In this document: positions 14,822 to 38,799 of the stretch, in pieces
How positions within the stretch are numbered: the stretch's first letter is position 1
How the letters are laid out: each line of letters starts with the position of its first letter
Assembly (NCBI GenBank): GCA_046290225.1
Contig: JBKAGE010000070.1
Coordinates: forward strand, 64,001 to 128,000
Direction: 5' to 3'
Source: Bradymonadia bacterium
GTDB lineage: Bacteria; Myxococcota_A; Bradymonadia; UBA7976; UBA1532
Length of the DNA stretch: 64,000 bases
Made by a program: the position numbers and the translations under genes
Notes under the pieces: generated by a model
Told to the model about the DNA's origin: nothing
The model's database searches: none
The model's input: only the letters and a program-made list of their open reading frames with translations

Positions 14822-17800
14822 ATGATCCCCCCAGCAGCGAGCACCTCCCAAAACACCCTCTTCACTGTGTTGCCCACTCTGGGCGCCTGGCAAGACCGGG
14901 CCGTGAGCACCCTCGCCACCGGCGCCGCCGTCGTGCTCGACCTCGGTGATCGCCCTGTGGATGTCGCCGCCGCCCCGACCCACGCGTCGCTGTGGTGGCG
15001 CGTAGGCAGTCATCGCAGCGCCGACCTCGCCGCGTTGCTCGACCGTGGCGGCCGCGCTGAGGGGCTGTGGATTGCAGCGGGTCATCGCTTCGAGGATGTA
15101 CAGGTGGCCGTGGCGCAGCTGAAGCGCCGTGCCCCGAGCCGGCCCATCGCCGTGGAGGTCCTCTCCCGTCAGGAGGCAGAGGCTGCGATGGCCGCCGGGG
15201 CCACCATGGTGGTCTGCAAGGGCCTCGAGGCCGGCGGCTTCATCGGCGAAGAGAGCATCTCCGTGCTCACCCGAGCCTGCGCCGAGGTGGCCCCCATGGT
15301 GGTGGCCTGGGGTGGCGCTGGCCCTGATAGCGTCGCCGCCTTGAAGGCGCTCGGTGCATGTGGGGCGGTCCTCGCAGACGCCCTGATGCTCGCCTCGGAT
15401 GCCCCCACCGGCGAGGCCCTGCGCAAGATTCTGCATCGCTTCGACCCTCGAGACACCCGCACACTCGGCCGACAGTTCAACCGCCGCCTCGGGGTCTTCG
15501 CACAGCTGGGCACCCGGCCTGTACGGGCGCTCGAAGCTGAAGCCGCAAGCCTCTTCAAGGGCCACGAGGCGCAAGGGGCTGAGCAGTTCTGGGGCCAGGT
15601 CCGTGACACCCTCGCCGACGATGTGTCGACCTGGAACCCGAAGACGCACGTGCTCGCCCTTGGTCAGGAGGCCGCCCTCGCCCGCCACCTGATGGCCGCC
15701 GTGGGCGCCGAGGGCACCACCGCCGATCTGGTGAGCCATGTGCAGCGCGTCACCGCGGAGATCGAGGCCGGCGTCGCCGCCGACTTCCCGCTCCAGGCAG
15801 GCGCAGGCATCTGCCGCACCAACGGCACCGTCCTGCCGATTCATCAGGGCCCCATGGCCCAGACCAGCGACGTGCCGGCCTTCGCCGAAGCCGTGGCCCG
15901 TGCCGGCGCCATGCCCTGGCTGGCCCTGGCGAACATGCCCACCCACGTCGCCGAGAAGCTCATGGTGGAGACCGCGGCCCGCCTCGGCGATCTGCCCTGG
16001 GGTGCCGGCATCATCGGCCTCGAGGCCAACCCCTACCGCGACGCCCACATCGAGCTGATCAAGAAGTACCGGCCTCAGAGCGCCCTCGTCGCAGCGGGCA
16101 CCACGGAGCAGGCGCAGCAGATCGAGAACTTCGGGGTGCCCAGCTGGCTGCACACCCCGACGCCGAACCTGGTCCAGGGGGCCCTGGCCGCCGGGGCCAC
16201 CCGATTGATTCTGGAGGGCAGCGAGGCGGGCGGCCACGTGGGCACCCTCGGCGGGCTGCTGCTCTGGCAGCTCGGCGCTCTGGAGATGATGGCCGCCATC
16301 GACGAGGGCGTTGCTCAGGCCGACGCCCTCGCCGTGACCCCCGCAGGGGGCATCGGCGACGCTCGATCTGCAGCGGCGGCCGCCACGGTGATGTGGCGTC
16401 TGCATCGCCGCGGCGTGGCTGTGGGCGTGCAGATGGGCACCGCCTACCTCATGACCGAGGAGATCGTCTCCACCGGCGCCCTCACGGCGTACTACCAGAC
16501 CGCCGCCATGCAGGTGGGGCAGACCGTGCTCATGGGCGAGTCGGTGCGCACGCCCACCCGCGTGCTCGACACGCCTCAGGCCACTCGGGTGCTCGCCCGA
16601 GAGGTGGCCCGCGAGGTGGCTCGGGCGCCCCTGGGCGAGCGCAAGTCGGCCTATGAGCACGACAACCTCGGCGGCCTCCGCGCCGCGGCGAAGGGCCAGA
16701 AGATCGACAAGATCATCCCAGGCCAGGGGGCGCTGTTCTGTCCGATCCCCATCGATGAGCAGCAGGACACCGGGCTGTTCCACATCGGCCAGGGTGTGGC
16801 CCTCGTGAAGGGCACCACCACCATGGCCGCCCTGCACCACGACGTCACCGAGGGTGCCCGGGCCGTGATGGCCGGCGAGGCCCCTCGACAGCAGCGGAGC
16901 GTCCCCACCGAGCATGCGGCGCCTTCTGCTCTGGCAGCGAGCGCGCCCGAGGGAGCCATCGCCATCGTCGGCGTCGGCTGCTGCCTGCCCGATGCCCTCA
17001 CCGTGGAGCAGTTCTGGCGCAACCTCATCGAGGGCCACAGCGCCATCGGCGAGGTCCCCGAGTCACGGTGGTCCACTGATCTGTTCTACAACGCAGATCC
17101 CAAGGCTGAAGATCGCACCTACAGCCGCATCGGCGGCTTTGTGCGGGACTTCAAGTTCGACCGCAAGGCCTTCCGCCTCCCGCCGAAGGTGGTCTCCCGC
17201 ATCGACGTGGGGCAGCAGTGGGCCCTCGAGGCCACTCGGCAGGCCCTCACCGACGCCGGGCTCTATGGCGACGACGCCAAGGCCTTCGACCGCAGTCGCT
17301 GCGCAGTCATCCTCGGCAACGCCATGGGGGGTGATACCCGCGACCTCACGAACTTCCGCTTGAACATGCCAAGGTTCCTGCAGGCCCTCGACGGGGTGCT
17401 CACCGAGGTGGATCCGGAGCTGGGTCGCCGGCTGCAGGCCATGAAGTCCGATCTCGAGGCCCGCTTGAAGGTGGGGCAGCTGGTGGTGGACGAAGACGCC
17501 ATGCCCGGGGAGCTGTCGAACATCGTCGCCGGTCGCGTGGCCCAGGTCTTCGATCTGCATGGCCCCAACTTCACCACCGACGCCGCCTGCGCCAGCAGCA
17601 TGGCTGCCCTGCAGGGGGCCATCGAGGGTCTGCGCAGCAAGCGCTTCGACATCGCCGTCTCTGGTGGCGTCGACAGCAGCATGGGCATGCCTGCCTATGT
17701 GAAGTTCTCGAAGATCGGCGCCCTCTCGGCCACGGGCTCGCGGCCCTTCGACGCCGGCGCCGATGGCTTTGTGATGGGTGAGGGCGCCGCGGTCCTGGTG

Positions 17801-20800
17801 CTCAAGCGCCTCGACGACGCCATCACTGATGGCGATCAGATCTACGCGGTCATCCGCGGCATCGGCGGCTCGAGTGACGGCAAGGGCAAGGGCATCACCG
17901 CGCCGAACCCTCGCGGCCAGGCCCTGGCGCTGCGCAACGCCTCGGAAGACGCCGGGGTGAGCCTCGGCACCCTACAGATGGTGGAAGCCCACGGGACCTC
18001 CACCCGGGTGGGGGATCGCACCGAGGTGGAGGTGCTCACGCAAGCGTTCACCGAGGCCAAAGACGCAGTGGCTCCCGGCTCGGTGGCTCTGGGCTCGGTG
18101 AAGTCGATGCTCGGCCACCTGAAGGGGGCCGCCGGCGCCGCAGGGGTGCTCAAGACCGCCCTGGCGCTGTATCACGAGACGATCCCCCCGTCGCTCAATT
18201 TCGAGCGCCCCAACGAAGCGCTGCTCACAGAAGGCAACCCCTTCTCCGTACCCACGTCGCCCAAGGCCTGGGCTGCCGCTGGCACGCCGCGCCGTGCCGG
18301 CGTGAGCGCCTTCGGCTTCGGCGGCACCAACTTCCACGTAATCCTGGAAGAAGCGCCGAGGGCGGGCGTCTACACCGATGGTGACGCAGTGCCCTCCACC
18401 CATGATTTCGCCACCCCTTCGGCACCGGCCTCCATGGCCGCCGCCGAAGCCTCAGCGCCAGCCGTCACGCACGCAGCCGCGCCTGCTCAGAAAGAATCGA
18501 TCTCCATGACCAGCGCTCAGACCCCCGCCGCCGATCACGAGGCCATCTACGCTCGCATCCTCGAGGTGCTGTGCACGCGGACGGGCTACGACGCCGACGA
18601 GATCGAGCCCGACTTCGAACTCGAGGCCGATCTGGGCATCGACACCGTCAAGCAGGCGGAGATCATGGCCGAGGTCCGCAAGGTCTACGGTCTGCCCCGT
18701 GACGAGACCTTCAAGCTCGCTGATTACCCCACGCTCCAAGCCATGACTCAGTACGTGGTCAAGATGACCGGCGGTGTTGCACCTGCTTCGGAGCTGGCTG
18801 CAGCGCCGACAGCACCCGCAACGCCTGCAGCGCCCGTCACAACGCCTGTGGTGGCCACGCCGGCCGCACCAGAGGCACCTGTGGCAGCGGACCCTGTTGC
18901 AGCAAACCCTGTTGCAGCGAACCCTGCTGCGGACAACGAGGCCATCTACGCTCGCATCCTCGAGGTGCTGTGCACGCGGACGGGCTACGACGCCGACGAG
19001 ATCGAGCCCGACTTCGAACTCGAGGCCGATCTGGGCATCGACACCGTCAAGCAGGCGGAGATCATGGCCGAGGTCCGCAAGGTCTACGGTCTGCCCCGTG
19101 ACGAGACCTTCAAGCTCGCTGACTACCCCACGCTCCAGGCCATGACTCAGTACGTGGTCAAGATGACCGGCGGTGCTGCACCTGCCGCGGAGGCTTCTTC
19201 TGCCCCCGCAGCAACAGCAGCGCCTGTGACGGAAGCGCCCTCAGCAGCTCCTGCTGCGCGTCCGGCGTGGTGGGGCTACCTGCCTGTCACCGTCACCGCT
19301 GATCGCCCCGAGGCCCTCGACCGGGCCATTGCTGATCTGCTCACCGCCCTTGGTGCCCGCGGCGAAGCCGCTCTGGAAGACGCCCGACGCCCTGCCCTGG
19401 ACGCCACGGCGCTCCGGGCCCAGTGCCGACTGACCTGCCCCGTGCCCCCCGGTGATGTCGCTGGTGCCACCAAGGCCCTCGACAGCGCCCTCAACACGCT
19501 GCGGACCGGCAAGGGCAAGCGCGTGCTCGAGGCTCGGGGCATCAGCCTGCGTCTCACCGCCCCCAGCGGAGCCAGGACCGCGTTCCTGTTCCCTGGGCAG
19601 GGCTCGCAATACACCGGCATGCTCTCCGATCTTCGGGGGGACTTCCCGGTCATCGACGAGGTCCTCGCCGAGGCCGACAAGATCATGGTCCCCCTGTTGG
19701 GCCACAAGCTGTCGACCTACTTCGATCCTCAGCAGCCCGAGCTGGTCATCGCCGGGGAACGCCGCAGCGCCGACGAGGCTCTGCGCCAGACCCAGATCAC
19801 CCAGCCCGCCATGCTCACCGCCGACATCGCCATGTTGCGCGTGATCGAAGGCTTCGGCCTCGCCCCCGACGTGGTGGCCGGGCACTCCCTGGGCGAGTAT
19901 GCCGCCTGCGTCGCCGCGGGCATGCTCGCCCTCGCCGACGGCCTGCAGACCGTGTCCACCCGGGGCACCGCCATGGCCCAGGCCACCCCCATGGGCGGCG
20001 ACTGTGGCCTCATGGCTGCCATCCCCGCCGGGGTGACCCAGATCCAGGGCATCCTGGACGCGTGCAGCGGCTATGTCATCGCCGCCAACAAGAACAGCCC
20101 CGCCCAGACGGTCATCGCCGGCAGCACCGAGGGCGTGCAGGAGGCCCTGGCAAAGCTCGCCGAGGCGGGCTTCGACGGCATGCTCATCCCCGTGAGCCAT
20201 GCCTTCCACTCCGAGGTGGTGGCCAGCGCCTCGGTGCCCCTCACCGCCCACCTGAAGTCCATCGACGTGAAGGCTCCGGCGATCCCCGTGCTGAGCAACG
20301 TCACCGCAGAGTACTTCCCGAGCAACCGAGCGCAGATCATCGATCTGCTCGGGGTGCAGGTGGCCCGCCCGGTGGAGTTCATCGGCATGGTGGAGCGCAT
20401 GTACGCCGACGGCGTGCGCACCTTCGTGGAGATCGGCCCCAAGCGGGCTCAGACGGGCTTCGTGAACAGCATCCTCGGTGATCGCCCCCACCGGGCCCTG
20501 TGCACCAACCACCCCAAGTTCGGCGGCCCCACCACGCTGCGGACCGCCCTCGCCGGCGCCGTGGCCGAGGGCATCGCCCTGCAGCCCTGGTCTGCAGATC
20601 GCCGCGCCATCAAGCTCAACGCAACCGCGGCAGCCTCTGTGGCCCCTGCGCCCATGGCGGCAGCGCCTGCGCCGAGCGCACCCGCAGTGACCGCCTCGCA
20701 GCCCACCGTCGGTGAGCCCGTGGTGGTGAGCGGCCTCACCGCTGCCCTCCCAGGCCGCGAGCGGCTCTTCACCGACGAAGACCCCTTCGAGCGGATCCTC

Positions 20801-23800
20801 AACGGCGAGAACCTCATCTCGGAGATCCCCGAGGCCGCCCGCCGCAACATGGCCAACAAGGCCATCACCCGCCTGGTGAAGAACAAGGACGGCGGCGGCG
20901 AGCTCGTGCCCGTGGACAACCCCGACGAGATGATCCACCTCGCCGGCCAGCTCGGCGATTACGATCTCATCGAGGACTTCGGGGTGCCCGCCGATCTGGT
21001 GAAGGCCCTCGACCGCGCCACGGGCGCCGCTTTGGGTTGCGGCCTCGACGTGCTCCGCGACGCCGGCCTGCCCATGATCCCCCACGAGCGGGTGACCCGG
21101 AGTGGCCGCAAGCTCAAGGTGGGCTGGCGACTGCCGGAGGTCATCGGTGATCGCACCGGCGTGATCTTCGCCTCGGCCTTCGCCGGTGAAGATGTGATGA
21201 TGGACGAGCTGAGCCGCCACATGGAGGCCCAGTTCGCCACCCGCACCGAGGCCGCCCGGGCCACCCTCGCCGAGCGCATGCTGCAGGCCCTGCCCGACGC
21301 TGAGAGCCGCGCCCGCATGCAGGCCCTCATCGACGAGGCCATCCCTGCTCAGGATCCGGCGGAGCTGTTCCAGTTCAACCGCCAGTACCTCGTGCAGATC
21401 CTCGGCCTCGGGGCCAGCCGCTTCGCGGAGTTCGTCGGCGCCCGCGGGCCCAACCTGCACATGAACATCGCCTGCGCCTCCACCACCGGGGCCGTGGCCA
21501 TCGCCAACGACTGGATCGCCCAGGGCCGCGCCGATCGCGTGGTGATCCTCGGCGCCGACGACGTCACCCGCGGGCACCTGCTCGAGTGGGTGGGCTCCGG
21601 CTTCCTCGCCGTGGGCGCCGCCACCAACGTCAAGGATGTCGCCGAGGGTGCCCTGCCCTTCGATGCCCGTCGCAACGGCATGATCGTCGGCGGCGGCGCA
21701 GTGGCTCTGCTGGTGGAGAAGGAGTCCGAGGTCCGAGCCCGAGGCATGTGCCCCGTGGCCGAGGTGGTGGCGACGCATCTGGTGAACAGCGCCATGCACC
21801 CCACCCGCCTCGACGTGGATCACGTGGCCCGGGAGGTGGGCGCCCTGATGACCGCCGCTGAGGCCAGGAAGCCCGGCCTCGATCGCCACGAGATCGCCTC
21901 GAAGACGGTCTTCATGAGCCACGAGACCTACACCCCCGCCCGAGGGGGCAGCGCCGCAGCGGAGATCGAGGCCCTGCGCCGCACCTTCGGCGACGCAGCC
22001 AACAGCGTGGTCATCGCCAACACCAAGGGCTTCTCGGGCCACCCCATGGGGGCGGGCATCGAAGACGCCGTGGTGCTCAAGGGCATGCAGCGCCAGAAGC
22101 TGCCCCCCATCGCCAACTTCAAGGTGCCTGATCCCACTCTGGGCGATCTCCGGCTCAGCCAGGGCGGCCCCCACGAGCTGCAGTACGCCCTGCGCCTCGC
22201 CGCGGGCTTCGGTTCTCAGCTCGCGCTGGTGCTCTACCGGGCCATGAGCACGATCCACACGCACCCCAACGAGGACCGCGTGGACGATCGGGCCCTGTAC
22301 CGCCGCTGGGTGGGCAGCCTCATCGGCGCCGACCAGGCTGAGGTCGAGGTGGTGAAGCGCGTGCTCCGGGTGCTGCCGATGAAGGCCGCCCAGCCCGAGG
22401 CCCCGGCCCCCACCACGGTGACGCCCGGAGTCCCTGCGCCTCAGCAGGTGATCCAGCCTGTAGCGGCGGCCCCTGCGGCCACCGCTCAGGGTGAGGCGGC
22501 GATCTACGGCACGCTGCTCGAGGTGCTCTGTGAGCGCACCGGCTACGACGCTGACGAGGTGGAGCCGGAGTTCGAGCTCGAGGCCGACTTGGGCATCGAC
22601 ACCGTCAAGCAGGCGGAGATCATGGCCGAGGTCCGCAAGGTCTACGGCCTGCCCCGCGACGAGTCCTTCAAGCTCGCCGACTACCCCACGCTCAAGGCCA
22701 TGACCGCTTACGTCATCAAGATGACTGGCGGTGCAAAGGCTGCAGCGCCAGCCGTCGAGGCGGCCCCGGCAGCACCTGCGCCCAAGGCCCCTGTGGCCAG
22801 GGTGCAGCTGGCTCAGGCCCCCGCTCCTGCCCCCGTCAAGGCTCAGCCTCCCATCGTCGAGGTGAACCCCGTAGCCGATCCCCGCGTGGTGGAGGCCCCT
22901 ACGGTCGAGACGCCTGCAGTGCTGGAGCCCAAGGGCATCGAGCGCCGTCTGGTCACCGTGAACGAGGGCCCGGGCATCGCCCCTGATCCTCAGCGGCTGC
23001 GCCAGCAGGTCGCTGGCCGCACCGTGGCCCTCGTCGGCGGCCCCGAAGGTCTCACCGAGACCCTCGCCAAAGCCCTCGCCGAGGCCGGCGCCCGCACGGT
23101 GACTCTCCCCCTCCCCACGGGGGGCGACATCGACGCCTGGACCGCCCACTTCGAGGGCGTGCTCTCCGGCGTCACCGGCGTCATCCAGATGCTGGGCTAC
23201 AGCCCTGTGGATGGCCCCGAGGGCGTCTACCGCCAGGGCGCCCTCACCTTCGCTCTGGCCAAGGCCCTGCGTCGGCAGCAGCCTGCAGGGGGCTTCTTCA
23301 TCACCCTCACCAGCATGGGCGGCCGCTTGGGCTTCGGTCAGGGGAACGGCACCCTGCCCCTCGGCGGCGCCGTGGCCGGTGTCACCAAGAGCCTGAGCCG
23401 CGAGTGGGCCGAGGCCCGCGTTCGCGTCATCGACCTCGAGCCTGGAGTGGTGTTCCACGGCCTGGGTGAGCTGGTGCTCGCCGAGGCGTTCTCCGACCGC
23501 CACGAGGTAGAGGTGGGCATCCGCGGCGGCCAGCGCTTCACCGTGCGGGAGACCGCGCTCTCGGTGAGCGGGCCCTCCCCCATGGGCGTGCGCCTCAACC
23601 CCACCTCGGTGATCCTCATCACTGGGGGCGCCGGGGGCATCACCGCCCGCATCGCCGGCGACATCGCCCGGCGCACTGGGGCCCGGCTGGCCCTCGTGGG
23701 CCGCACCGCCCTCACCCACGCCGATCCGCGTAGCATCGACCTCGAGCAGGAGAAGGCCCGTATCAAGGCTGATCTCAAGGCCCGCGGCGAGCGCGCCACG

Positions 23801-26392
23801 CCCATGGCGGTGCAGAAGGCCATCCGCCCTCTGGCTCGCCAGCAGGAGATCGCCGGGATCATCGACGCCCTCAAGGCCGAAGGGGCCGCCGACGTGGCCT
23901 ACTTCAGCGCCGACACCTCCGATGGGGCCGCCCTCGAGACCGTGGTCCGAGAGGTGCGTCAGCGCTTCGGCCGCATCGACGGGGTCATCCACGGCGCCGG
24001 TGTGGAGATCAGTCGCCGCATCGAGGAGAAGCCCGGGGCGGAGTTCGACCGCGTGTTCCGGGGCAAGGCCCTCGGCGGGCTGCACCTGTGGCGCCTCACT
24101 GGTGAGCAGCGGATCGCAGGCGAGGGCCCATTGTCGTTCTTCGTCACCTTCAGCTCCGTCGCTGGCCGCTACGGCAACGCCGGCCAGGCGGACTACAGCG
24201 CCGCCAACGAGGTGCTCAACAAGCTCGTGGCCCAGGTGAACGCCGGGGGCAAGGCCCAGATCGCCTTGTCGCTGGACTGGACCGCCTGGGACGAGGTAGG
24301 CATGGCGGTGCACGGCTCGATGAAGCAGATCCTCACCGCCGCAGGGGTGGAGCTGCTGCCCCCTGAGGTGGGCGCCCCCATGGTGGGTGACCTGCTCGAG
24401 TCGGGCATCTGGGGTGAGGTGGTCATCGCCGGCCGCCTCGGCCAGCTCGGGGGCAAGACCCCCGTGGCCCCGCCGGTGGCCTTGCCCGATCTCAGCCGCA
24501 GCCCCTTCCTCGATGCCATCGTCCGGTACACCCCGGGCCAGAGCCTCGAGGCGAGCCGCACCCTCGACCTGACCCGCGATCACTGCCTGCGGGGCCACAT
24601 CTACGACGGCGTGGCCCTGGTGCCCGGGGTCATCGGCATGGAGATGATGGCCGAGGCCGCTCGGGCGCTGTTCCCGCGCCTGGCCTTCATCGGGGTGGAC
24701 GATCTCGACTTCGCCGCCGCCCTCAAGCTGCACCGGGGCGAGCCTGTGGAGGTCCGCGTCGACGTCGAGGCTCTGCCCGCCGTCGAGGGTGAGGCCGCTC
24801 AGCTCGTGAAGGCCTCGGTCCGTTCGGTGCGCACCAACCGCGCCGGTCGCACCCTCGAGGCAGAGCACTTCCGCTCCATCGTGCGCCTCGGCGGTCTCGC
24901 CGACCCCGCGCCGGAGCCGTTGCCTTTCGACACCGAGGATGCCTTCCGGGTGGGCCCTGATCAGCACGTGCTCTACCAGCGCATGTTCCACAGCGGGGTC
25001 TTCGAGGTCATCACCGACATCCCCTTCGTGGGCGACAAGGCGGTCATCTGCCGCGGCCGGCTCCCCGGCGCAGCCCTCACCGAGGGTGGCCTCGATGACG
25101 ACGCCATCACTGATCCGCTGGTCCGGGAGATGGCCTTCCAGACTGCTGGCCTGTGGGGGATCATCTGGCACAAGCGCCAGTACCTGCCCCTCAAGGCACG
25201 CCAGATCCGGCAGTACCAGCGCCACCTGCCCGAGGGCGGGGAGCTGGTCATCCGGGCCCGTCTCATCGAGGGCGGCCCGGAGAAGGCCGTGCTCGACGTG
25301 GAGGTGGTCACCCTCGACGGCCGGCTGATCCAACGCCTGCACGGCCTGGAGATGATCGGCCACCGTCCCCTGGCGGAGCACGAGATCCTCAACGTGGGCC
25401 CTCAGCGCCCGGTCATCGGCCGCACCCTCGAGGTCGAAGACATCCGCGTGTGGATGGGTGGCCTGGGCAAGATCATCGACGACACCCTCACCCCCGAGGA
25501 GCGCGCCGAGTGGGCCCGTCTGCGGCACCCTGATCGTCGTATGGACTGGCTCGCAGGCCGGATGGCGGCCAAGTCCCTCGTCTGTGACTACGTACGGGAC
25601 TTCATGGGCCAGGGCATCGACCCCGAGCGGGTGCAGATCACTCGGACCGAGGCGGGGCAACCCGTGGTGCGGTTCCACCCGCCGGAGAAGGCCCCCGGCC
25701 GACCCCCGGCCCTCACCATCAGCCACTCCAGCGGCACCGCCCTCGCCGTGCTCGCCCTGTCGCCCAACCTACGACCTGGGGTGGACATCGAGCGGGTGCA
25801 GCCCCGGAGCGAGGCCTTCATCGCCGACTACTTCACCGAGGCCGAGGCCGCTCTCGAGATCCCCGGGGCCATCAGCCGCGACGAGCGCATCACCGCGCTC
25901 TGGGCCCTCAAAGAGGCAGTGACCAAGGCCCTGGGCACCGGTCTCGCGGTGAGCACCTCGGACATCACCATCGAGTCCATCACCCCCACCCGAGAGGGCA
26001 ACACCCTCGAGGGTCAGGCTCAGATCAGCCTGAAGGGCGACGCGCTGAGGGCATACGACGCGCTGGAAGGCCAGGCCCTCACCGCCACGGTCACCCTCGT
26101 GGGGGCCTTTGCCCGGGCGCTGGTCTGCCTCACCAGCGAGCTGCCCCTCGACCCGCCGGCGGCGCAGGTTGCCCCTGTGGAGCCTGTCGCCGATGTACCC
26201 GTCGGTGAGCCCACCGCCGAGCCCGCCCCGGCCCCCATCGCTGATCGCCACGTGGAGCGCGCCACCCACGCCGAGGGGCAGACCCTCGCCGTGCGGCCTG
26301 CGCTCGACGACAACCTCAAGGCGGCCATCGCCGCCCTCTTGTTCGACCGCGGCCTGTTGAGCCACGGCCTGCGCCCCGGGAGCAAACGATGA
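14822..26392 (+). CDS. Single-chain iterative type I PKS / PUFA-synthase-like megasynthase: ER*(degenerate)-ER(FabK/PfaD-type)-KS-ACP-ACP-AT-KS-ACP-KR-DH-PPTase
   Basis: ER: PIHQGPM, EGSEAGGHVG, GVQMGTAYL. KS1: DAACASS/EAHGTST/GHLKGAAG. ACPs: ELEADLGIDTVKQAE x3. AT: FPGQGSQ, GHSLG, HAFHS. KS2: NIACAST/SHETYT/GHPMG. KR: TGGAGGI, YSAANE. DH: HIYDGVALVP. PPTase: ISHS, GVDIE, WALKEAVTKALGTG. Confidence 0.95.
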   Translation: MIPPAASTSQNTLFTVLPTLGAWQDRAVSTLATGAAVVLDLGDRPVDVAAAPTHASLWWRVGSHRSADLAALLDRGGRAEGLWIAAGHRFEDVQVAVAQLKRRAPSRPIAVEVLSRQEAEAAMAAGATMVVCKGLEAGGFIGEESISVLTRACAEVAPMVVAWGGAGPDSVAALKALGACGAVLADALMLASDAPTGEALRKILHRFDPRDTRTLGRQFNRRLGVFAQLGTRPVRALEAEAASLFKGHEAQGAEQFWGQVRDTLADDVSTWNPKTHVLALGQEAALARHLMAAVGAEGTTADLVSHVQRVTAEIEAGVAADFPLQAGAGICRTNGTVLPIHQGPMAQTSDVPAFAEAVARAGAMPWLALANMPTHVAEKLMVETAARLGDLPWGAGIIGLEANPYRDAHIELIKKYRPQSALVAAGTTEQAQQIENFGVPSWLHTPTPNLVQGALAAGATRLILEGSEAGGHVGTLGGLLLWQLGALEMMAAIDEGVAQADALAVTPAGGIGDARSAAAAATVMWRLHRRGVAVGVQMGTAYLMTEEIVSTGALTAYYQTAAMQVGQTVLMGESVRTPTRVLDTPQATRVLAREVAREVARAPLGERKSAYEHDNLGGLRAAAKGQKIDKIIPGQGALFCPIPIDEQQDTGLFHIGQGVALVKGTTTMAALHHDVTEGARAVMAGEAPRQQRSVPTEHAAPSALAASAPEGAIAIVGVGCCLPDALTVEQFWRNLIEGHSAIGEVPESRWSTDLFYNADPKAEDRTYSRIGGFVRDFKFDRKAFRLPPKVVSRIDVGQQWALEATRQALTDAGLYGDDAKAFDRSRCAVILGNAMGGDTRDLTNFRLNMPRFLQALDGVLTEVDPELGRRLQAMKSDLEARLKVGQLVVDEDAMPGELSNIVAGRVAQVFDLHGPNFTTDAACASSMAALQGAIEGLRSKRFDIAVSGGVDSSMGMPAYVKFSKIGALSATGSRPFDAGADGFVMGEGAAVLVLKRLDDAITDGDQIYAVIRGIGGSSDGKGKGITAPNPRGQALALRNASEDAGVSLGTLQMVEAHGTSTRVGDRTEVEVLTQAFTEAKDAVAPGSVALGSVKSMLGHLKGAAGAAGVLKTALALYHETIPPSLNFERPNEALLTEGNPFSVPTSPKAWAAAGTPRRAGVSAFGFGGTNFHVILEEAPRAGVYTDGDAVPSTHDFATPSAPASMAAAEASAPAVTHAAAPAQKESISMTSAQTPAADHEAIYARILEVLCTRTGYDADEIEPDFELEADLGIDTVKQAEIMAEVRKVYGLPRDETFKLADYPTLQAMTQYVVKMTGGVAPASELAAAPTAPATPAAPVTTPVVATPAAPEAPVAADPVAANPVAANPAADNEAIYARILEVLCTRTGYDADEIEPDFELEADLGIDTVKQAEIMAEVRKVYGLPRDETFKLADYPTLQAMTQYVVKMTGGAAPAAEASSAPAATAAPVTEAPSAAPAARPAWWGYLPVTVTADRPEALDRAIADLLTALGARGEAALEDARRPALDATALRAQCRLTCPVPPGDVAGATKALDSALNTLRTGKGKRVLEARGISLRLTAPSGARTAFLFPGQGSQYTGMLSDLRGDFPVIDEVLAEADKIMVPLLGHKLSTYFDPQQPELVIAGERRSADEALRQTQITQPAMLTADIAMLRVIEGFGLAPDVVAGHSLGEYAACVAAGMLALADGLQTVSTRGTAMAQATPMGGDCGLMAAIPAGVTQIQGILDACSGYVIAANKNSPAQTVIAGSTEGVQEALAKLAEAGFDGMLIPVSHAFHSEVVASASVPLTAHLKSIDVKAPAIPVLSNVTAEYFPSNRAQIIDLLGVQVARPVEFIGMVERMYADGVRTFVEIGPKRAQTGFVNSILGDRPHRALCTNHPKFGGPTTLRTALAGAVAEGIALQPWSADRRAIKLNATAAASVAPAPMAAAPAPSAPAVTASQPTVGEPVVVSGLTAALPGRERLFTDEDPFERILNGENLISEIPEAARRNMANKAITRLVKNKDGGGELVPVDNPDEMIHLAGQLGDYDLIEDFGVPADLVKALDRATGAALGCGLDVLRDAGLPMIPHERVTRSGRKLKVGWRLPEVIGDRTGVIFASAFAGEDVMMDELSRHMEAQFATRTEAARATLAERMLQALPDAESRARMQALIDEAIPAQDPAELFQFNRQYLVQILGLGASRFAEFVGARGPNLHMNIACASTTGAVAIANDWIAQGRADRVVILGADDVTRGHLLEWVGSGFLAVGAATNVKDVAEGALPFDARRNGMIVGGGAVALLVEKESEVRARGMCPVAEVVATHLVNSAMHPTRLDVDHVAREVGALMTAAEARKPGLDRHEIASKTVFMSHETYTPARGGSAAAEIEALRRTFGDAANSVVIANTKGFSGHPMGAGIEDAVVLKGMQRQKLPPIANFKVPDPTLGDLRLSQGGPHELQYALRLAAGFGSQLALVLYRAMSTIHTHPNEDRVDDRALYRRWVGSLIGADQAEVEVVKRVLRVLPMKAAQPEAPAPTTVTPGVPAPQQVIQPVAAAPAATAQGEAAIYGTLLEVLCERTGYDADEVEPEFELEADLGIDTVKQAEIMAEVRKVYGLPRDESFKLADYPTLKAMTAYVIKMTGGAKAAAPAVEAAPAAPAPKAPVARVQLAQAPAPAPVKAQPPIVEVNPVADPRVVEAPTVETPAVLEPKGIERRLVTVNEGPGIAPDPQRLRQQVAGRTVALVGGPEGLTETLAKALAEAGARTVTLPLPTGGDIDAWTAHFEGVLSGVTGVIQMLGYSPVDGPEGVYRQGALTFALAKALRRQQPAGGFFITLTSMGGRLGFGQGNGTLPLGGAVAGVTKSLSREWAEARVRVIDLEPGVVFHGLGELVLAEAFSDRHEVEVGIRGGQRFTVRETALSVSGPSPMGVRLNPTSVILITGGAGGITARIAGDIARRTGARLALVGRTALTHADPRSIDLEQEKARIKADLKARGERATPMAVQKAIRPLARQQEIAGIIDALKAEGAADVAYFSADTSDGAALETVVREVRQRFGRIDGVIHGAGVEISRRIEEKPGAEFDRVFRGKALGGLHLWRLTGEQRIAGEGPLSFFVTFSSVAGRYGNAGQADYSAANEVLNKLVAQVNAGGKAQIALSLDWTAWDEVGMAVHGSMKQILTAAGVELLPPEVGAPMVGDLLESGIWGEVVIAGRLGQLGGKTPVAPPVALPDLSRSPFLDAIVRYTPGQSLEASRTLDLTRDHCLRGHIYDGVALVPGVIGMEMMAEAARALFPRLAFIGVDDLDFAAALKLHRGEPVEVRVDVEALPAVEGEAAQLVKASVRSVRTNRAGRTLEAEHFRSIVRLGGLADPAPEPLPFDTEDAFRVGPDQHVLYQRMFHSGVFEVITDIPFVGDKAVICRGRLPGAALTEGGLDDDAITDPLVREMAFQTAGLWGIIWHKRQYLPLKARQIRQYQRHLPEGGELVIRARLIEGGPEKAVLDVEVVTLDGRLIQRLHGLEMIGHRPLAEHEILNVGPQRPVIGRTLEVEDIRVWMGGLGKIIDDTLTPEERAEWARLRHPDRRMDWLAGRMAAKSLVCDYVRDFMGQGIDPERVQITRTEAGQPVVRFHPPEKAPGRPPALTISHSSGTALAVLALSPNLRPGVDIERVQPRSEAFIADYFTEAEAALEIPGAISRDERITALWALKEAVTKALGTGLAVSTSDITIESITPTREGNTLEGQAQISLKGDALRAYDALEGQALTATVTLVGAFARALVCLTSELPLDPPAAQVAPVEPVADVPVGEPTAEPAPAPIADRHVERATHAEGQTLAVRPALDDNLKAAIAALLFDRGLLSHGLRPGSKR
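18537..19174 (+). repeat. Near-identical tandem ACP-coding duplication (399-bp offset)
   Basis: 18537-18775 vs 18936-19174 differ at only two synonymous positions that I could see (gat/gac; caa/cag). Confidence 0.9.
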
Positions 26393-26895
26393 GTCGTTAT
26401 GTGGTCAAGATGCCCGGGGGTCAGCCGATCCCCGTCCGTCTCACTGCGGGGCCCCGGGGCTGGTCTGCAGAGGTGGAAGACGGCGCCCACTGGCTGAAGC
26501 TGGTGCACTTCGACGGACAGGACGCGGTGTGTGTGGAGATCGACGGCGATCGATACGAGCTGTCGCTGAGCCGCGACTTCGGCGATGTGGAGATCGCCCC
26601 GGCGACGCTGCCCCCCACCACCCACAAGCCCCGGCCCAAGGCCATCGCGGCCCCTGGGGACTTCACCAGCACCATCACCGGCGCGGTGCTGGAGATCTGC
26701 GTGGGCCCCGGCGATCACGTGCAGCCCGGTGATCCCCTGGTGGTCATCGAGGCCATGAAGATGGAGAACACGCTGTGCGCCCCCCGAGCGGGCACCATCG
26801 TGGCGATCTCTGCCCGTCAGGGCGACACTGTCCGCAAGGGCGAAACCCTGCTGGTCCTGGGGCCCCCGCCCCTCGACCCCCCCACCATGCACTGA
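26389..26895 (+). CDS. Biotin carboxyl carrier protein (biotinyl domain)
   Basis: IEAMKMEN biotinylation motif; ATGA overlap with PKS stop. Confidence 0.93.
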   Translation: MSRYVVKMPGGQPIPVRLTAGPRGWSAEVEDGAHWLKLVHFDGQDAVCVEIDGDRYELSLSRDFGDVEIAPATLPPTTHKPRPKAIAAPGDFTSTITGAVLEICVGPGDHVQPGDPLVVIEAMKMENTLCAPRAGTIVAISARQGDTVRKGETLLVLGPPPLDPPTMH

Positions 26896-26909
26896 GCCGA
26901 GGAGCGACC

Positions 26910-28469
26910 ATGTCAGTGAGTGAAGATCCCCGACTCAAGGCGGCCCACAGCGAGGGCCTGCAGACGCCGAAGGCCCCTCAAGGCACGGCACAGGCCCCTC
27001 AGACCAAGGCGCGCCCCGAGGCCCGGGCCATGCACCGCCTGATCCGGCTGTTCGATCCCGGCACCTTCGAGGAGATCGGATCACAGGTGACCCACCGGTG
27101 CACCGATTACGGCCTCGAGAAGAAGCAGCACCCCGGCGATGGCGTGATCACCGGCTTCGGTGAGATCGACGGCCGCACGGTCTGCGCCTACGCCCAAGAT
27201 CGCACCGTGCTCGGTGGCTCTCTCGGCGAAGCCCACGCCCAGAAGATCACCGCCCTGCAGGACATGGCCCTGCGCATCGGCGCCCCTCTGGTGGCCCTGA
27301 ACGATTCTGGCGGCGCCCGTATCCAAGAGGGCGTGAACAGCCTCGGAGGCTACGGCGAGATCTTCCGCCGCCACGTGGCGGCCTCGGGCGTGATCCCACA
27401 GATCGCCCTGGTCCTGGGCCCCTGCGCCGGCGGCGCGGTGTATGCCCCGGCCCTGATGGACTTCGTGGGCATGGTGGATCACGGCGCCTACATGTTCCTC
27501 ACCGGCCCTCGGGTGGTGAAGACGGTGACCTTCGAAGACGTGACCCCCGAGGCCCTCGGCGGTGGCGAGGTCCACGCCACCCAGACCGGCGTGTCGCACT
27601 TTCTGTTCCCCGACGAAGAGGCAGCCATCGATCACGTACGGCAGCTGCTGAGCTACCTGCCGGGCCGTCAGGGCGATCCGTTGCCTGATCACGAGCCCAC
27701 TGATCCAGTGAACCGTATCAGCGCTGATCTCGAGTCACTCGTGCCCGCAGATCCGCGTCAGCCGTACGACGTGCGCCTGGTCATCGACGAGATCCTCGAC
27801 CGCGACAGCTTCCTCGAGGTGCACCCCCTCTGGGCCCAGAACGTGGTGGTGGGCTTCGCCCGCCTCGGCGGCAAGGTGGTGGGGGTCATCGCCAACCAGC
27901 CCCTGCACCTCGCCGGCGTGCTCGACATCGACTCCAGCCGCAAGGCCGCCCGCTTCATTCGCACCTGCAACGCCTTCGGGGTACCCCTGGTGAGCCTCGT
28001 GGACGTACCCGGGTTCCTGCCCGGCGTAGATCAGGAGCACGGCGCGGTCATCGATCACGGCGCCAAGCTGCTCTACGCATACTGCGAGGCCACGGTGCCC
28101 AAGCTGAGTGTGGTGCTGCGCAAGGCCTACGGCGGCGCATACATCGTCATGAGTTCGAAGCACGTAGGCGGTGACGCCAACCTGTCCTGGCCTCAGGCGG
28201 AGCTGGCGGTGATGGGCGCCCCCGGCGCGGTGCAGATCCTGAACCGCAGGGAGCTCGCCGCTCACCCTGAGCCTGCCACCCGTCAGAAGGAGCTGGAGGA
28301 GGAGTACAAGGATATGTACTTGTCACCGGCTCGGGCAGCCTCTCGTGGCTACCTCGACGAGATCATCGACCCGGCTCAGACACGGCGGAAGCTGTACCGC
28401 TATCTGAAGGCGCTGGGCTCGAAGCAAGAGTCTCTGCCTGCGAAGCGCAACGGGAACGCACCTCTCTGA
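26910..28469 (+). CDS. Acyl-CoA carboxylase carboxyltransferase subunit (PccB/AccD family)
   Basis: GDGVITGFG, DSGGARIQEG, GPCAGGAVY, DVPGFLPG, RKAYGGAY, KRNGNAPL; GAGGAG RBS before ATG 26910. Confidence 0.95.
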   Translation: MSVSEDPRLKAAHSEGLQTPKAPQGTAQAPQTKARPEARAMHRLIRLFDPGTFEEIGSQVTHRCTDYGLEKKQHPGDGVITGFGEIDGRTVCAYAQDRTVLGGSLGEAHAQKITALQDMALRIGAPLVALNDSGGARIQEGVNSLGGYGEIFRRHVAASGVIPQIALVLGPCAGGAVYAPALMDFVGMVDHGAYMFLTGPRVVKTVTFEDVTPEALGGGEVHATQTGVSHFLFPDEEAAIDHVRQLLSYLPGRQGDPLPDHEPTDPVNRISADLESLVPADPRQPYDVRLVIDEILDRDSFLEVHPLWAQNVVVGFARLGGKVVGVIANQPLHLAGVLDIDSSRKAARFIRTCNAFGVPLVSLVDVPGFLPGVDQEHGAVIDHGAKLLYAYCEATVPKLSVVLRKAYGGAYIVMSSKHVGGDANLSWPQAELAVMGAPGAVQILNRRELAAHPEPATRQKELEEEYKDMYLSPARAASRGYLDEIIDPAQTRRKLYRYLKALGSKQESLPAKRNGNAPL

Positions 28470-32766: not shown

Positions 32767-34110
32767 TCACTCGCAGGCGCCCGCCACAGCAGCGTCCACA
32801 CCAGCGGCGTGCGCGAAGCACTCATTGTCGTACGTGATCCCGTTGCACCCGCAAACAGGGGAGAAGATCTCACCGCAGGCCTCAGGGCGGGGCTGACAGG
32901 TACCCGTAGCGTCGGCGAAGTCGCAGAAGTCGCCGGCGAAGTCGCAGAACTCATTGTCCTCACAGGTGTTGCCGAGACGGGCACCGCAGGCGCGGCCCGG
33001 GGGCGGAGGGGGGGGCAGGTCGAAATCGCAGCGCTGCTGGCAAGCCTCCAGGCTGTCGAAACGGTTCTCGTTGCCCATGCAGCCGCCGTAGAGGAACTCT
33101 TCGCAGTTGTTCGTCTCTGCGTTGTAGAACCAGGCCTGAATCGCCGCCTCGCAAGGGCCCGAGTCCGCCGGGAGCTGGCAAATGTCTACGGGGGGGCACT
33201 GGCGGATGACCCAGCCACAGGCGCCGGTCTCAGTGTAGTCACACACCGGGCCGCCGATGCTGCCGTCCGGGCACTCGAAGTTCGGGGCGCCGGGGGCGGG
33301 ACCGCACATCTCCGGCGTGCACTCTTCGGGCTGCTCGCACTCCCCCTCGAACTGCACGTCCATGCCGCTGGCGTGTGCGTCACACTCGTTGCCGTAGGTG
33401 TTGCCGTCGCAGCCACAAACCGGGGCGTAGATGTCGGGGCATGCCTCGGGGCGAGGCTGGCACGTACCACCGCCATCGGCGAAGCCACAGCCACCGTCGA
33501 TGTAATCGCAGTAGGCATCAACGCCACACATCAGGCCGCCGAATCCACCACACTCCACCGGGGGCTCTTCACACTGGCCGATGGTCCAGCCACATGCGCC
33601 GTCGGCTTGGGGCTCACAGGCGATGTCGGGGCCCTCGCCATCAGGGCAGGGCGCCACAGGAGGGAGCTCGCCACACTCTTCTGGCGAGCACACAATGGGC
33701 TCACAGCCGCCGCCCTGCCACTCGCAGGTGCCCACGGGCGTCGCGTCACAGACAAAGGGCATCGGCATCGTGTCGGGGGGGCATTGCGCCTGGTCGGGCA
33801 TCGGGCCACAGTCTTCGTCGCTGCACATGCCGCCCGCGCCGCCAGCACCACCGGGCTCACCGCCCATGCCTGCGGCACCACCAGCGCCGCCACCGCCCAT
33901 GCCTGCCTCACCGCCAGCGCCACCGATGTTGCCGCCCATACCGGCCTCACCGCCAGCACCGCCACCGCCCATACCGGCTTCGCCACCGGCGCCACCGCCG
34001 CCCATGCCCGCTTCACCACCGGCACCACCGGTACCGGTGTCAGTGTCTTCTTGATCACAGGCCGCCAGGGCCAGGGCACACCCCAAAACCATCCACAGAT
34101 GCTTGCTCAT
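32767..34110 (-). CDS. Lipoprotein with two Kazal-type and one Kunitz/BPTI protease-inhibitor domains
   Basis: Lipobox LAAC; Kazal CPDIYAPVCGCDGNTYGNEC and CGEIFSPVCGCNGITYDNEC; Kunitz CQLPADSGPCEA...FYNAETNNCEEFLYGGCMGNENRF...C...C. Confidence 0.92.
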   Translation of the reverse strand: MSKHLWMVLGCALALAACDQEDTDTGTGGAGGEAGMGGGGAGGEAGMGGGGAGGEAGMGGNIGGAGGEAGMGGGGAGGAAGMGGEPGGAGGAGGMCSDEDCGPMPDQAQCPPDTMPMPFVCDATPVGTCEWQGGGCEPIVCSPEECGELPPVAPCPDGEGPDIACEPQADGACGWTIGQCEEPPVECGGFGGLMCGVDAYCDYIDGGCGFADGGGTCQPRPEACPDIYAPVCGCDGNTYGNECDAHASGMDVQFEGECEQPEECTPEMCGPAPGAPNFECPDGSIGGPVCDYTETGACGWVIRQCPPVDICQLPADSGPCEAAIQAWFYNAETNNCEEFLYGGCMGNENRFDSLEACQQRCDFDLPPPPPPGRACGARLGNTCEDNEFCDFAGDFCDFADATGTCQPRPEACGEIFSPVCGCNGITYDNECFAHAAGVDAAVAGACE

Positions 34111-37330: not shown

Positions 37331-37663
37331 ATGAGCACGTACTACAAGCCCGAGCACCTGCCCCAGTTCTCCGAGATCGCCGAAGGCAACCCCGATCTGG
37401 CGAAGAAATTCTTCGACTACTACGGCTCGGTCTTCGCCGATGGTGCGCTCTCCAAGCGGGAGAAGGCCCTCATCGCCCTCGCCGTGGCCCACGCGGTCCA
37501 GTGCCCGTACTGCATCGACGCCTACTCCAAAGAAAGCCTCGAGGCCGGCTCTGATCTTGAGCAGATGACCGAGGCGGTCCACGTGGCCACGGCCATCCGC
37601 GGCGGCGCCTCCCTCGTGCACGGGGTGCAGATGCTCGAGCACGTGCGCAAGATGGAGATGTGA
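37331..37663 (+). CDS. AhpD/CMD-family peroxidase-like protein associated with ArsS-type radical SAM
   Basis: LSKREKALIALAVAHAVQCPYCIDAY; IRGGASLVHGVQM. Confidence 0.9.
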   Translation: MSTYYKPEHLPQFSEIAEGNPDLAKKFFDYYGSVFADGALSKREKALIALAVAHAVQCPYCIDAYSKESLEAGSDLEQMTEAVHVATAIRGGASLVHGVQMLEHVRKMEM

Positions 37664-38799
37664 TGTCGGATCTCTACCAAATCGAAGATCCCACCACAGG
37701 GGTCACCGAAGAGGTCGATCTCGAAGGCACCGAGGCGGGGCCCAAGCGAGCCACCAGCCTGCACCGCCGCCGAGATCCGCTCATGCATCCTCAGCGCCAG
37801 CTCGAGGCCCTCGGACACGTCGAGCTTCCGAGCCATCACCTCGACTTCGAGCGCGCCCTCACCGAGTCGAACATCGACGGCTTGCGGCCCACGAAGCTCG
37901 ACATCTTCCAGATCAACATCGGCAAGCTGTGCAACATGACCTGCCGGCACTGCCATGTGGACTCAGGGCCCGATCGCACTGAGGAGAACATGGATCGGGC
38001 CACCGTCGATGCGTGCCTCGCGGCCCTCAACGCCTCCGGCGCCCACACGGTAGACATCACCGGCGGCGCCCCGGAGCTGAACCCGCACTTCCGGTACCTC
38101 GTCGACGAGTGCGTCAAGCGTGGCCTGCACGTCATCGATCGGTGCAACCTCACCGTGTTGCTGATCCCCAGCCTGCGAGATCTGCCCGCCTGGCTCGCCG
38201 AGCGCGGCGTGGAGGTGGTGTGCTCACTGCCTCACTACCGCAAGCGGAACACCGACGCGCAACGGGGTGACGGCACCTATGAGAAGTCTCTCCGAGCACT
38301 GAGACGCCTCAACGAAGTGGGGTACGGCACCGGGGACCCCAAGCGGATGCTCACCCTCATGTCGAACCCCGCGGGATCGTTCCTCGCCGGTGACCAGAGC
38401 TCGATGGAGCGTGAATGGAAGGTAAACCTGCAGGCCAACCACGGGGTCACCTTCGATCGGCTGTTGTGCCTCAACAACATGCCCATCTCGAGATACCTTG
38501 AGTGGTTGCTCGAGAAGGGTCGCCTCGACGAGTACATGGCCCGGCTCACCGCGGCCTTCAACCCTGGTGCAGTCTCGGGCCTCATGTGCCTCAACACGAT
38601 CTCGATCTCCTGGGACGGCCGCATCTTCGACTGCGACTTCAACCAGATGCTCGATCTCGAGTCGGTCATGGGCGATCGGGCCCCCAACATCCGCGACTTC
38701 GACCTGAACGCCTTCCTCGACCGCCGGGTGGTCACCGATCGGCACTGCTTCGGGTGCACCGCCGGTCAGGGCAGCTCTTGTGGGGGCGCCACCGCCTGA
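37663..38799 (+). CDS. arsS: Radical SAM/Cys-rich protein, ArsS (arsenosugar biosynthesis)-like with DUF3641-type tail
   Basis: CNMTCRHC radical SAM motif, DITGGAPELNP, DRCNLT, YDCDFNQML-like FDCDFNQML, HCFGCTAGQGSSCGG. Confidence 0.85.
   Translation: MSDLYQIEDPTTGVTEEVDLEGTEAGPKRATSLHRRRDPLMHPQRQLEALGHVELPSHHLDFERALTESNIDGLRPTKLDIFQINIGKLCNMTCRHCHVDSGPDRTEENMDRATVDACLAALNASGAHTVDITGGAPELNPHFRYLVDECVKRGLHVIDRCNLTVLLIPSLRDLPAWLAERGVEVVCSLPHYRKRNTDAQRGDGTYEKSLRALRRLNEVGYGTGDPKRMLTLMSNPAGSFLAGDQSSMEREWKVNLQANHGVTFDRLLCLNNMPISRYLEWLLEKGRLDEYMARLTAAFNPGAVSGLMCLNTISISWDGRIFDCDFNQMLDLESVMGDRAPNIRDFDLNAFLDRRVVTDRHCFGCTAGQGSSCGGATA

Follow-up and report, generated by a model that had tools for sequence, protein, structure and literature searches.

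Threonine at the carrier sites of a megasynthase

Can a threonine hold the 4'-phosphopantetheine arm of an acyl carrier protein (ACP)? In textbook carrier domains the cofactor is held by a serine (Ser). For fatty acid, polyketide and non-ribosomal peptide synthesis alike, this Ser is treated as the invariant phosphopantetheine acceptor, and it underlies annotation rules as well as 'inactive ACP' calls. The question is raised by a megasynthase gene in a 64,000-nt stretch of the Bradymonadia bacterium contig JBKAGE010000070.1 (hereafter the window, whose positions are used for all feature coordinates). All three ACPs of the megasynthase read EADLGIDTVKQAE, the longer core of each being ELEADLGIDTVKQAEIM, and where a PF00550 domain is expected to carry its acceptor Ser at the start of helix II, each has threonine (Thr) instead, encoded by ACC codons at 18644, 19043 and 22601. 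The evidence set out below shows that this Thr is shared by a whole family of synthases and suggests that it is probably the acceptor itself.

In phmmer alignments with solved ACPs, the Thr of the window's ACPs falls precisely on the residue that is modified there, the Ser of DLGIDSV in PigH (5y08), of DLGADSL in a Staphylococcus ACP (4dxe) and of DLDIDSL in mycobacterial AcpM (7bvc). The translation, the codons and this alignment confirmed an earlier inspection of the letters and open reading frames (ORFs) of the window (hereafter the sequence-only reading), which had placed Thr at the phosphopantetheine site of all three ACPs and had described the third as diverged: ACP1 and ACP2 are identical in protein sequence, and ACP3 is 82% identical to ACP1. 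The domain-by-domain search gave the order ER-KS-ACP-ACP-AT-KS-ACP-KR-DH-PPTase (ER, enoyl reductase; KS, ketosynthase; AT, acyltransferase; KR, ketoreductase; DH, dehydratase; PPTase, phosphopantetheinyl transferase), with the following parts, all on the + strand.

14822..26392, +: megasynthase ORF, 3856 aa (Pfam/NCBIfam and domain-by-domain search)
15827..16714, +: N-terminal nitronate-monooxygenase/FabK-like enoyl reductase region, aa 336-631 (PF03060, 50.6 bits; TIGR03151 FabK, 67.7 bits, below cut-off)
16955..18205, +: ketosynthase 1 (KS1), aa 712-1128, with Cys-His-His motifs (PF00109/PF02801; motifs from the translation)
18554..18757, +: ACP1, with Thr1275 (ACC, 18644-18646) at the phosphopantetheine position (PF00550; phmmer alignment; codon)
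18953..19156, +: ACP2, with Thr1408 (ACC, 19043-19045) at the phosphopantetheine position (PF00550; codon)
19583..20440, +: acyltransferase, aa 1588-1873, with GHSLG and HAFH motifs (PF00698, 137 bits; TIGR00128 FabD, 204.7 bits, below cut-off)
20774..22291, +: second ketosynthase (KS2), at the 'CLF' (chain-length factor) position of Type R synthases, with the Cys kept (IACAST) and GHPMG (second PF00109/PF02801 stretch)
22511..22714, +: ACP3, with Thr2594 (ACC, 22601-22603) at the phosphopantetheine position (PF00550; codon)
23609..24295, +: ketoreductase, aa 2930-3158 (PF08659, 122 bits)
24503..25354, +: polyketide synthase (PKS)-type dehydratase, aa 3228-3511 (PF21089 and PF14765)
25499..26191, +: fused Sfp-type PPTase domain, Pfam core aa 3653-3725 (PF01648, 51.1 bits, cut-off 25; alignment with Sfp 4mrt and AASDHPPT)

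PF00550 scored 79.7 bits on the megasynthase against a cut-off of 20.8, over three stretches, each of which scored 32-35 bits in the genome search. The top NCBIfam model, whether the query was the entire protein or just the ACP, was that of the polyunsaturated fatty acid (PUFA) synthase PfaA (TIGR02813), whose score of 892.2 bits on the full-length protein lies under the curated cut-off of 1010.1; no NCBIfam model specific to Thr-type ACPs was found. The catalytic motifs of KS, AT, KR, DH and PPTase, which the sequence-only reading had called intact, could be read in the translation under the usual motif definitions: DAACASS, EAHGTST and GHLKGAAG in KS1, GHSLGE and HAFHS in AT, YSAAN in KR, HIYDGVALVP in DH, and ISHS, GVDIE and WALKEAVTKALG in the PPTase, the last three all aligned to Sfp and human AASDHPPT. 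KS2, at the Type R 'CLF' position, likewise has an active-site Cys and the His motif GHPMG; judging from these motifs, it may be a working KS instead of a chain-length factor.

Conservation of the threonine across the family

A whole-length homologue search gave 1809 matches among 2151 scored candidates, and the matches listed include the cultured bacteria Persicimonas caeni, Bradymonas sediminis, Lujinxingia species and Microvenator marinus. In the best 120 of these full-length homologues, which have 1-7 ACPs per protein in tandem arrays, the ACP cores read DLG[IV]DTV[KR][QL]AE, with Thr in 401/401 and Ser in none. A search with ACP1 only, against 1.84 billion representatives, returned 4334 matches at E <= 1e-3. 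Over 265 pooled proteins, the acceptor site was Thr 862 times, Ser 121 times, and Asp and Ala once each; 242 proteins were Thr-only, 19 were Ser-only, 2 were mixed, and 2 had Thr with one degenerate copy (Asp or Ala). Most of the Ser-only proteins are classical PfaA-type synthases (LGIDSIKRVEIL), and the Asp and Ala cases are visibly degenerate ACP copies (the third ACP of P0150 and the seventh of P0156). The homologues are thus mostly of the Thr type, with 862 Thr against 121 Ser sites, a point on which the sequence-only reading had staked its proposal. A KS-AT query blind to the ACPs added 119 Acidobacterial proteins, in which Thr occupied the site in 408/408 cores.

Species-representative genomes were also scanned with the peptide pattern [LM]EA[DE]LGID[TS], which gave more than 606 stretches. 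All 242 ACP cores of the best 79 loci had Thr, though the pattern permitted T or S, and these loci come from at least nine phyla, with sources in Acidobacteriota, Myxococcota, Chloroflexota, Elusimicrobiota, Gemmatimonadota, Actinomycetota, Thermodesulfobacteriota, Rhodothermales and two archaeal metagenome-assembled genomes (MAGs). The Thr codons were ACG in 134 cases, ACC in 94, ACA in 8 and ACT in 6, and more than one type occurred within the locus in 27 of the 79. Since the Thr is family-wide (401/401 and 242/242 cores) and all four Thr codons are used, a sequencing error or a pseudogene was rejected as its source.

Because the other lists were ranked by likeness to a Thr-type query, the exact motif DLG[IV]D-x-VKQAE was counted in 401 genomes sampled from the window's phylum. 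It was present with Thr in 97 of them, and a reversed-pattern control gave 0; neither Ser version (TCN or AGY) occurred in any of the 401 genomes (0 and 0). The distribution of the motif in the phylum is patchy: it was found in 0/17 other sampled genomes of the window's own family versus 26/35 of a class-mate family. The synthase gene may have been acquired horizontally in the window's lineage.

Ser and Thr also interchange within the family. Two Ser-type proteins, P0208 (EADLGIDSVKQAE) and P0167, have the same architecture as the Thr-type, fused PPTase included, and in a FastTree tree of the KS domain (179 rows, in which the placement of long rows is unsure) each is nested in a starred Thr clade (3 rows at 95*/98* and 12 rows at 100*/97*). 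The Ser/Thr label requires six changes on this tree, at least three of them by starred branches, and in P0264 the sites within one chain are Ser, Thr and Thr. By this comparison the acceptor site keeps a hydroxyl, Thr being exchanged almost only with Ser. The Thr site read in the window's gene is real. It is no peculiarity of that gene, but characterises a large family already catalogued as Type R. On comparative grounds, we regard the site as ancient and apparently under selection in this large and widespread lipid-megasynthase family.

Several arrangements within the family are worth recording. ACP position is permuted among close relatives, from KS-ACP-ACP-AT-KS-ACP-KR in the window to AT-ACPn-KS in P0004 and P0017; P0029 and P0032 have the canonical KS-ACPn-KR, and P0036 and P0037 have split ACP arrays. 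Thr-type synthases with a fused PPTase also occur on contigs labelled as a Thermoplasmata archaeon, a Methanobacteriota archaeon and Enterobacteriaceae/Enterobacterales MAGs (L038, L045, L022 and L023), and a Heimdallarchaeota MAG is named among the whole-length homologues. Either horizontal transfer or binning error could account for the synthases on archaeal and enterobacterial MAG contigs. On a closed Myxococcales MAG chromosome, a 1073-aa ORF (L039, 9257-12475) encodes a KR together with two Thr-ACPs. No match to KS, AT or PPTase lies within 20 kb of this ORF, which may represent a split form of the synthase system.

The phosphopantetheinyl transferase partner

The sequence-only reading had proposed tabulating Thr against the presence of the fused PPTase. 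Among proteins of at least 2500 aa, a fused PPTase was found in 113 of 161 Thr-type proteins and was absent from 48, and the Ser-type proteins comprised 2 with and 8 without it. A tie between Thr and the fusion itself was therefore rejected; the unfused synthases have a homologous PPTase gene downstream instead. In the 79 loci, a PPTase was present in 57 overall. Of the 57 loci that extend at least 1 kb past KR/DH, 56 have a PPTase fused or downstream on the same strand (54 detected by phmmer, and L032 and L038 by profile); no PPTase was found in the exception, L024, whose contig ends 5.9 kb after DH.

The PPTase domain of the window scored over the PF01648 cut-off, and its catalytic His, Asp, Glu and WxxKExxxK residues aligned with those of Sfp and AASDHPPT. 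The seven catalytic residues (His, Asp, Glu, Trp, Lys, Glu and Lys) show 97-100% conservation across 122 fused PPTase domains; in 21 sequences, 20 of them free-standing PPTases, they are invariant or at least 90% conserved. The motif that corresponds to the hShxH of Type R PPTases reads LTISH in the window, with Thr at its second position, and LSISH or LSLSH in free-standing relatives.

A complex of PPTase, ACP, CoA and Mg was modelled in three runs. The score was 0.83 in the three runs, with 0.49 for the best control, and that mark was reached by 116/157 solved complexes and by 2/215 mismatched pairs. Contact agreement between runs was at least 93%, and the partner pLDDT was at least 88. In the modelled contacts, ACP residues 40-42 (Asp-Thr-Val) meet the GVDIE Glu (PPTase residue 98) and, in WxxKE, the Trp (135) and the second acidic residue, Glu (139). 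The model supports docking, but because Sfp complexes with a peptidyl carrier protein (PCP) have already been solved, this pass may only reflect likeness to them.

Is threonine the phosphopantetheine acceptor?

Given that Thr stands in place of the Ser that normally holds the cofactor, the built-in PPTase probably attaches the cofactor to Thr. We consider it probable, on comparative evidence, that Thr is the phosphopantetheine acceptor and is served by the system's own Sfp-type PPTase. The megasynthase would then be a self-contained, iterative enzyme of fatty-acid/polyketide type within the Type R secondary lipid synthase family, in which the three ACPs would work as carriers with 4'-phosphopantetheine on Thr1275, Thr1408 and Thr2594. 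The C-terminal Sfp-type PPTase would attach the arm to Thr, a task that relatives would give to the homologous PPTase encoded downstream. The chemistry that follows would be of the ordinary kind: AT would load malonyl units, probably supplied through the adjacent carboxylase genes, onto the pantetheine thiol, and the two KS domains, KR, DH and ER would build a reduced acyl chain. We infer the modification of Thr from its position and conservation, the Thr/Ser exchange, the accompanying PPTase and the intact motifs. Another acceptor was not apparent: in 824 distinct Thr-ACP segments no column exceeds 22% Ser, and 174 of them, as well as ACP1 and ACP2 of the window, have no Ser at all.

The sequence-only reading had left two branches open, one in which a dedicated PPTase modifies Thr and one in which the domains are non-carriers and the intermediates ride on CoA or a trans ACP. 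In the second, the Thr-ACPs would be unmodified scaffold or docking domains, and the carrier role would fall to CoA or to a Ser-type ACP from another locus, such as the housekeeping AcpP. This fits the genome, where a Ser-type AcpP occurs along with several further Ser carriers, and it fits the E. coli ACP variant S36T, which cannot be phosphopantetheinylated and cannot replace AcpP (PMC3340395). Yet the site stays Thr or reverts to Ser without drift, and true decay in the family takes the form of Ala or loss of the motif (P0156, P0150). The tandem arrays of 1-7 ACPs match those that raise throughput in PUFA synthases (PMC3098273, available part), the helix II docking motif is invariant in the Thr-ACP segments, and synthases whose carriers are all Thr-type come with a conserved PPTase, fused or adjacent, in which the catalytic residues are intact. 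A conserved trans ACP was sought and rejected: none was present near the synthase in the 79 loci, where a free-standing ACP occurred in 0/79 and a true Ser carrier domain outside the synthase in one only (L063). With variation almost confined to Thr and Ser, a PPTase that is conserved and always present, and neither an alternative Ser nor a trans ACP, the comparative evidence favours the first branch, and we judge the non-carrier branch distinctly unlikely.

It is also conceivable that Thr is modified by a PPTase tolerant of both Ser and Thr, so that Thr is near-neutral, historically fixed and without an insulating role. Ser- and Thr-type synthases do fall in one PPTase clade with no distinguishing column, Ser revertants lie inside Thr clades, and the window's genome has Ser carriers that the fused PPTase may serve, there being only two PPTase matches. 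A mixed site would be expected under neutrality, yet Thr was present in 97/97 motif-bearing genomes of the phylum and Ser in 0, and Thr is held through synonymous codon change. Because fixation in the phylum and synonymous codon change point to selection for Thr itself, this account seems unlikely to us. A third alternative, in which Thr would bear not phosphopantetheine but something else, for instance a directly attached acyl oxoester or another phospho-linked cofactor, is scarcely probable. Nothing supports it directly; its one opening is that nobody has yet seen the modification. The PPTase that goes with the synthase is a canonical Sfp-type one in which all CoA- and Mg-binding residues are kept, and the KS, AT, KR and DH domains are of types that, as in type I fatty acid synthases (FAS) and PKS, act on pantetheine thioesters.

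Several points weigh against Thr as the acceptor. We came across no mass spectrum or biochemical assay that shows Thr-bound phosphopantetheine, whether in this system or in any other, and the failure of S36T to be modified means that at least one PPTase class rejects Thr. No sequence signature for Thr specificity was found in the fused PPTases, and no conserved PPTase column separates the Thr-type from both Ser-type proteins, a comparison that involves two Ser-type sequences only. The complex model is blind to Thr versus Ser. The counts are non-independent samples, many of the proteins being close kin and several lists being the best matches to a Thr-type query.

Insulation from host carrier pools

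The sequence-only reading had further proposed a carrier system orthogonal to the ACP and PPTase pools of the host. The window's genome, of 8.58 Mb and 99.4% completeness, encodes an AcpP of the Ser type (DLGADSLD) that adjoins a FabF scoring over its cut-off. There are also matches that resemble FabH and FabZ but stay under their cut-offs, and an AcpS of 140 aa. Since a Ser-type AcpP and an AcpS are present and E. coli S36T is not modified, insulation from AcpS is plausible: the housekeeping AcpS would probably be unable to serve the Thr-ACPs, and as a likely consequence the pathway would be insulated from primary fatty acid synthesis.

The genome has further Ser carriers, in an ElbD-like protein, a fatty acyl-AMP ligase (FAAL)-ACP and a PKS, of a kind that usually needs an Sfp-type PPTase. 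Only two PPTase matches were present in the genome, the fused domain and AcpS, and because of this the fused PPTase may also accept Ser, in which case the insulation would be one-sided. The ElbD-like protein (reductase, AMP-binding, PP-binding and acyltransferase, with a Ser carrier) lies at G000 C60:4052-8749 (L093), and its domain order resembles that of the myxobacterial ether-lipid enzyme.

A wider proposal, which we hold tentatively and would place somewhat short of even, is that the whole lipid-megasynthase family uses O-(4'-phosphopantetheinyl)-threonine, a modification not yet described, installed by a dedicated PPTase lineage. Thr would have been selected as invisible to AcpS, and perhaps to ACP phosphodiesterase, giving a private carrier pool for a second fatty-acid factory, which would run alongside type II FAS or, in certain lineages, replace it.

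Relation to known systems

Sfp with PCP (4mrt) and human AASDHPPT (2cg5) resemble the fused domain in that the His, Asp/Glu and WxxKExxxK residues are kept, and the fused PPTase was modelled with ACP helix II docked at its active site, as in an Sfp-type PPTase with its carrier. To our knowledge, the characterised substrates of Sfp-type PPTases all bear Ser; unlike in those systems, the in-cis substrates of the window's PPTase are all Thr-type. The enediyne PKS (PKSE) is an iterative type I enzyme of the order KS-AT-ACP-KR-DH-PPTase, with a C-terminal in-cis PPTase, one KS, one Ser-type ACP and no ER. Set beside this general description, the window's synthase is similar in being an iterative type I enzyme by our reading, in its C-terminal in-cis PPTase and in its KR-DH-PPTase order.

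The closest system is Type R, catalogued in 2011. In the report that defined it, Type R consists of one pfaA homologue of the order KS-MAT-CLF-ACP(3-6)-KR (MAT, malonyl-CoA acyltransferase), with a downstream PPTase of the non-PUFA 'P1b-prime' (hShxH) type; in Koribacter a gene for acetyl-CoA carboxylase stands between the two. Type R was described from Acidobacteria (Koribacter, Solibacter) and from Elusimicrobium and Roseiflexus (Shulse & Allen 2011, PLoS One 6:e20146, PMC3098273). The window shares with it the single pfaA-like gene, KS, MAT, second KS/CLF, tandem ACPs, KR and a carboxylase gene: all five domain kinds are present, with three ACPs, and the synthase gene is directly followed by those for a biotin carrier and a carboxyltransferase. 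A PPTase is present as well, but as a domain of the synthase. Unlike Type R, the window's synthase has ER and PPTase fused and two ACPs between KS1 and AT, so that the order is permuted and DH, ER and PPTase are added. In locus L030 the gene order is electron transfer flavoprotein (ETF)-beta, ETF-alpha, acyl-CoA dehydrogenase, a 2959-aa synthase, an 1890-aa multidomain acetyl-CoA carboxylase and a 255-aa PPTase. Compared with the published description, the unfused relatives match Type R exactly, and the window's gene is best classed as a fused and permuted member.

PfaA (TIGR02813), of the eicosapentaenoic and docosahexaenoic acid synthases of marine Gammaproteobacteria, is similar to the window's system in its tandem ACPs with the helix II motif TGY...LEADLGID-x-[IV]K, its KS-AT-ACPn-KR order and its dedicated PPTase (PfaE). 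It differs in that its ACPs read LGIDSIKRVEIL, with Ser, and the Pfa systems have KS-CLF, DH and ER on separate proteins (PMC3098273, available part).

The words 'threonine' and 'serine' are both missing from PMC3098273, so that the Thr site was not reported there. No prior report of Thr-linked phosphopantetheine or of the motif was found in the open literature, most subscription journals being outside this coverage, so that an earlier report is possible. The family itself was thus already known, and what appears to be new, from sequence comparison, is Thr at its carrier sites, which we found described nowhere.

If Thr is indeed modified, this would be a new protein modification, together with a PPTase able to make it, and the pair would be a naturally orthogonal ACP/PPTase system for labelling and pathway engineering. 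Automated tools would then misjudge thousands of synthases, and Type R, so far an orphan family, would be given a biochemical trait that defines it. Roughly one in four genomes sampled from the window's phylum has the family, which also occurs in Acidobacteriota, Chloroflexota and others.

Downstream carboxylase genes and other features of the window

Two genes of a carboxylase module follow the megasynthase.

26389..26895, +: biotin-carrier-like protein, directly downstream of the megasynthase (PF00364, 63 bits)
26901..28469, +: carboxyltransferase, whose ORF start is possibly 26775 (PF01039, 589.6 bits; TIGR01117, 661 bits, below the cut-off of 998.8)

These adjacent genes are a probable source of malonyl-CoA for the synthase; no biotin carboxylase was present among the 21 window ORFs scanned. 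The module is thus a biotin carrier plus an mmdA-like carboxyltransferase in the window, and in the Acidobacterial locus L030 (13191-18863) an 1890-aa eukaryote-style multidomain enzyme after the synthase. The L030 gene parallels the window in its placement, being located between synthase and PPTase.

Two other features of the window were observed. A 447-aa ORF at 32767-34110 (- strand) combines one protease-inhibitor domain of the Kunitz/BPTI type with two of the Kazal type, which is animal-like and uncommon among bacteria. At 37331-38799 (+ strand), an ORF of the carboxymuconolactone-decarboxylase family precedes a radical SAM protein that contains DUF3641.

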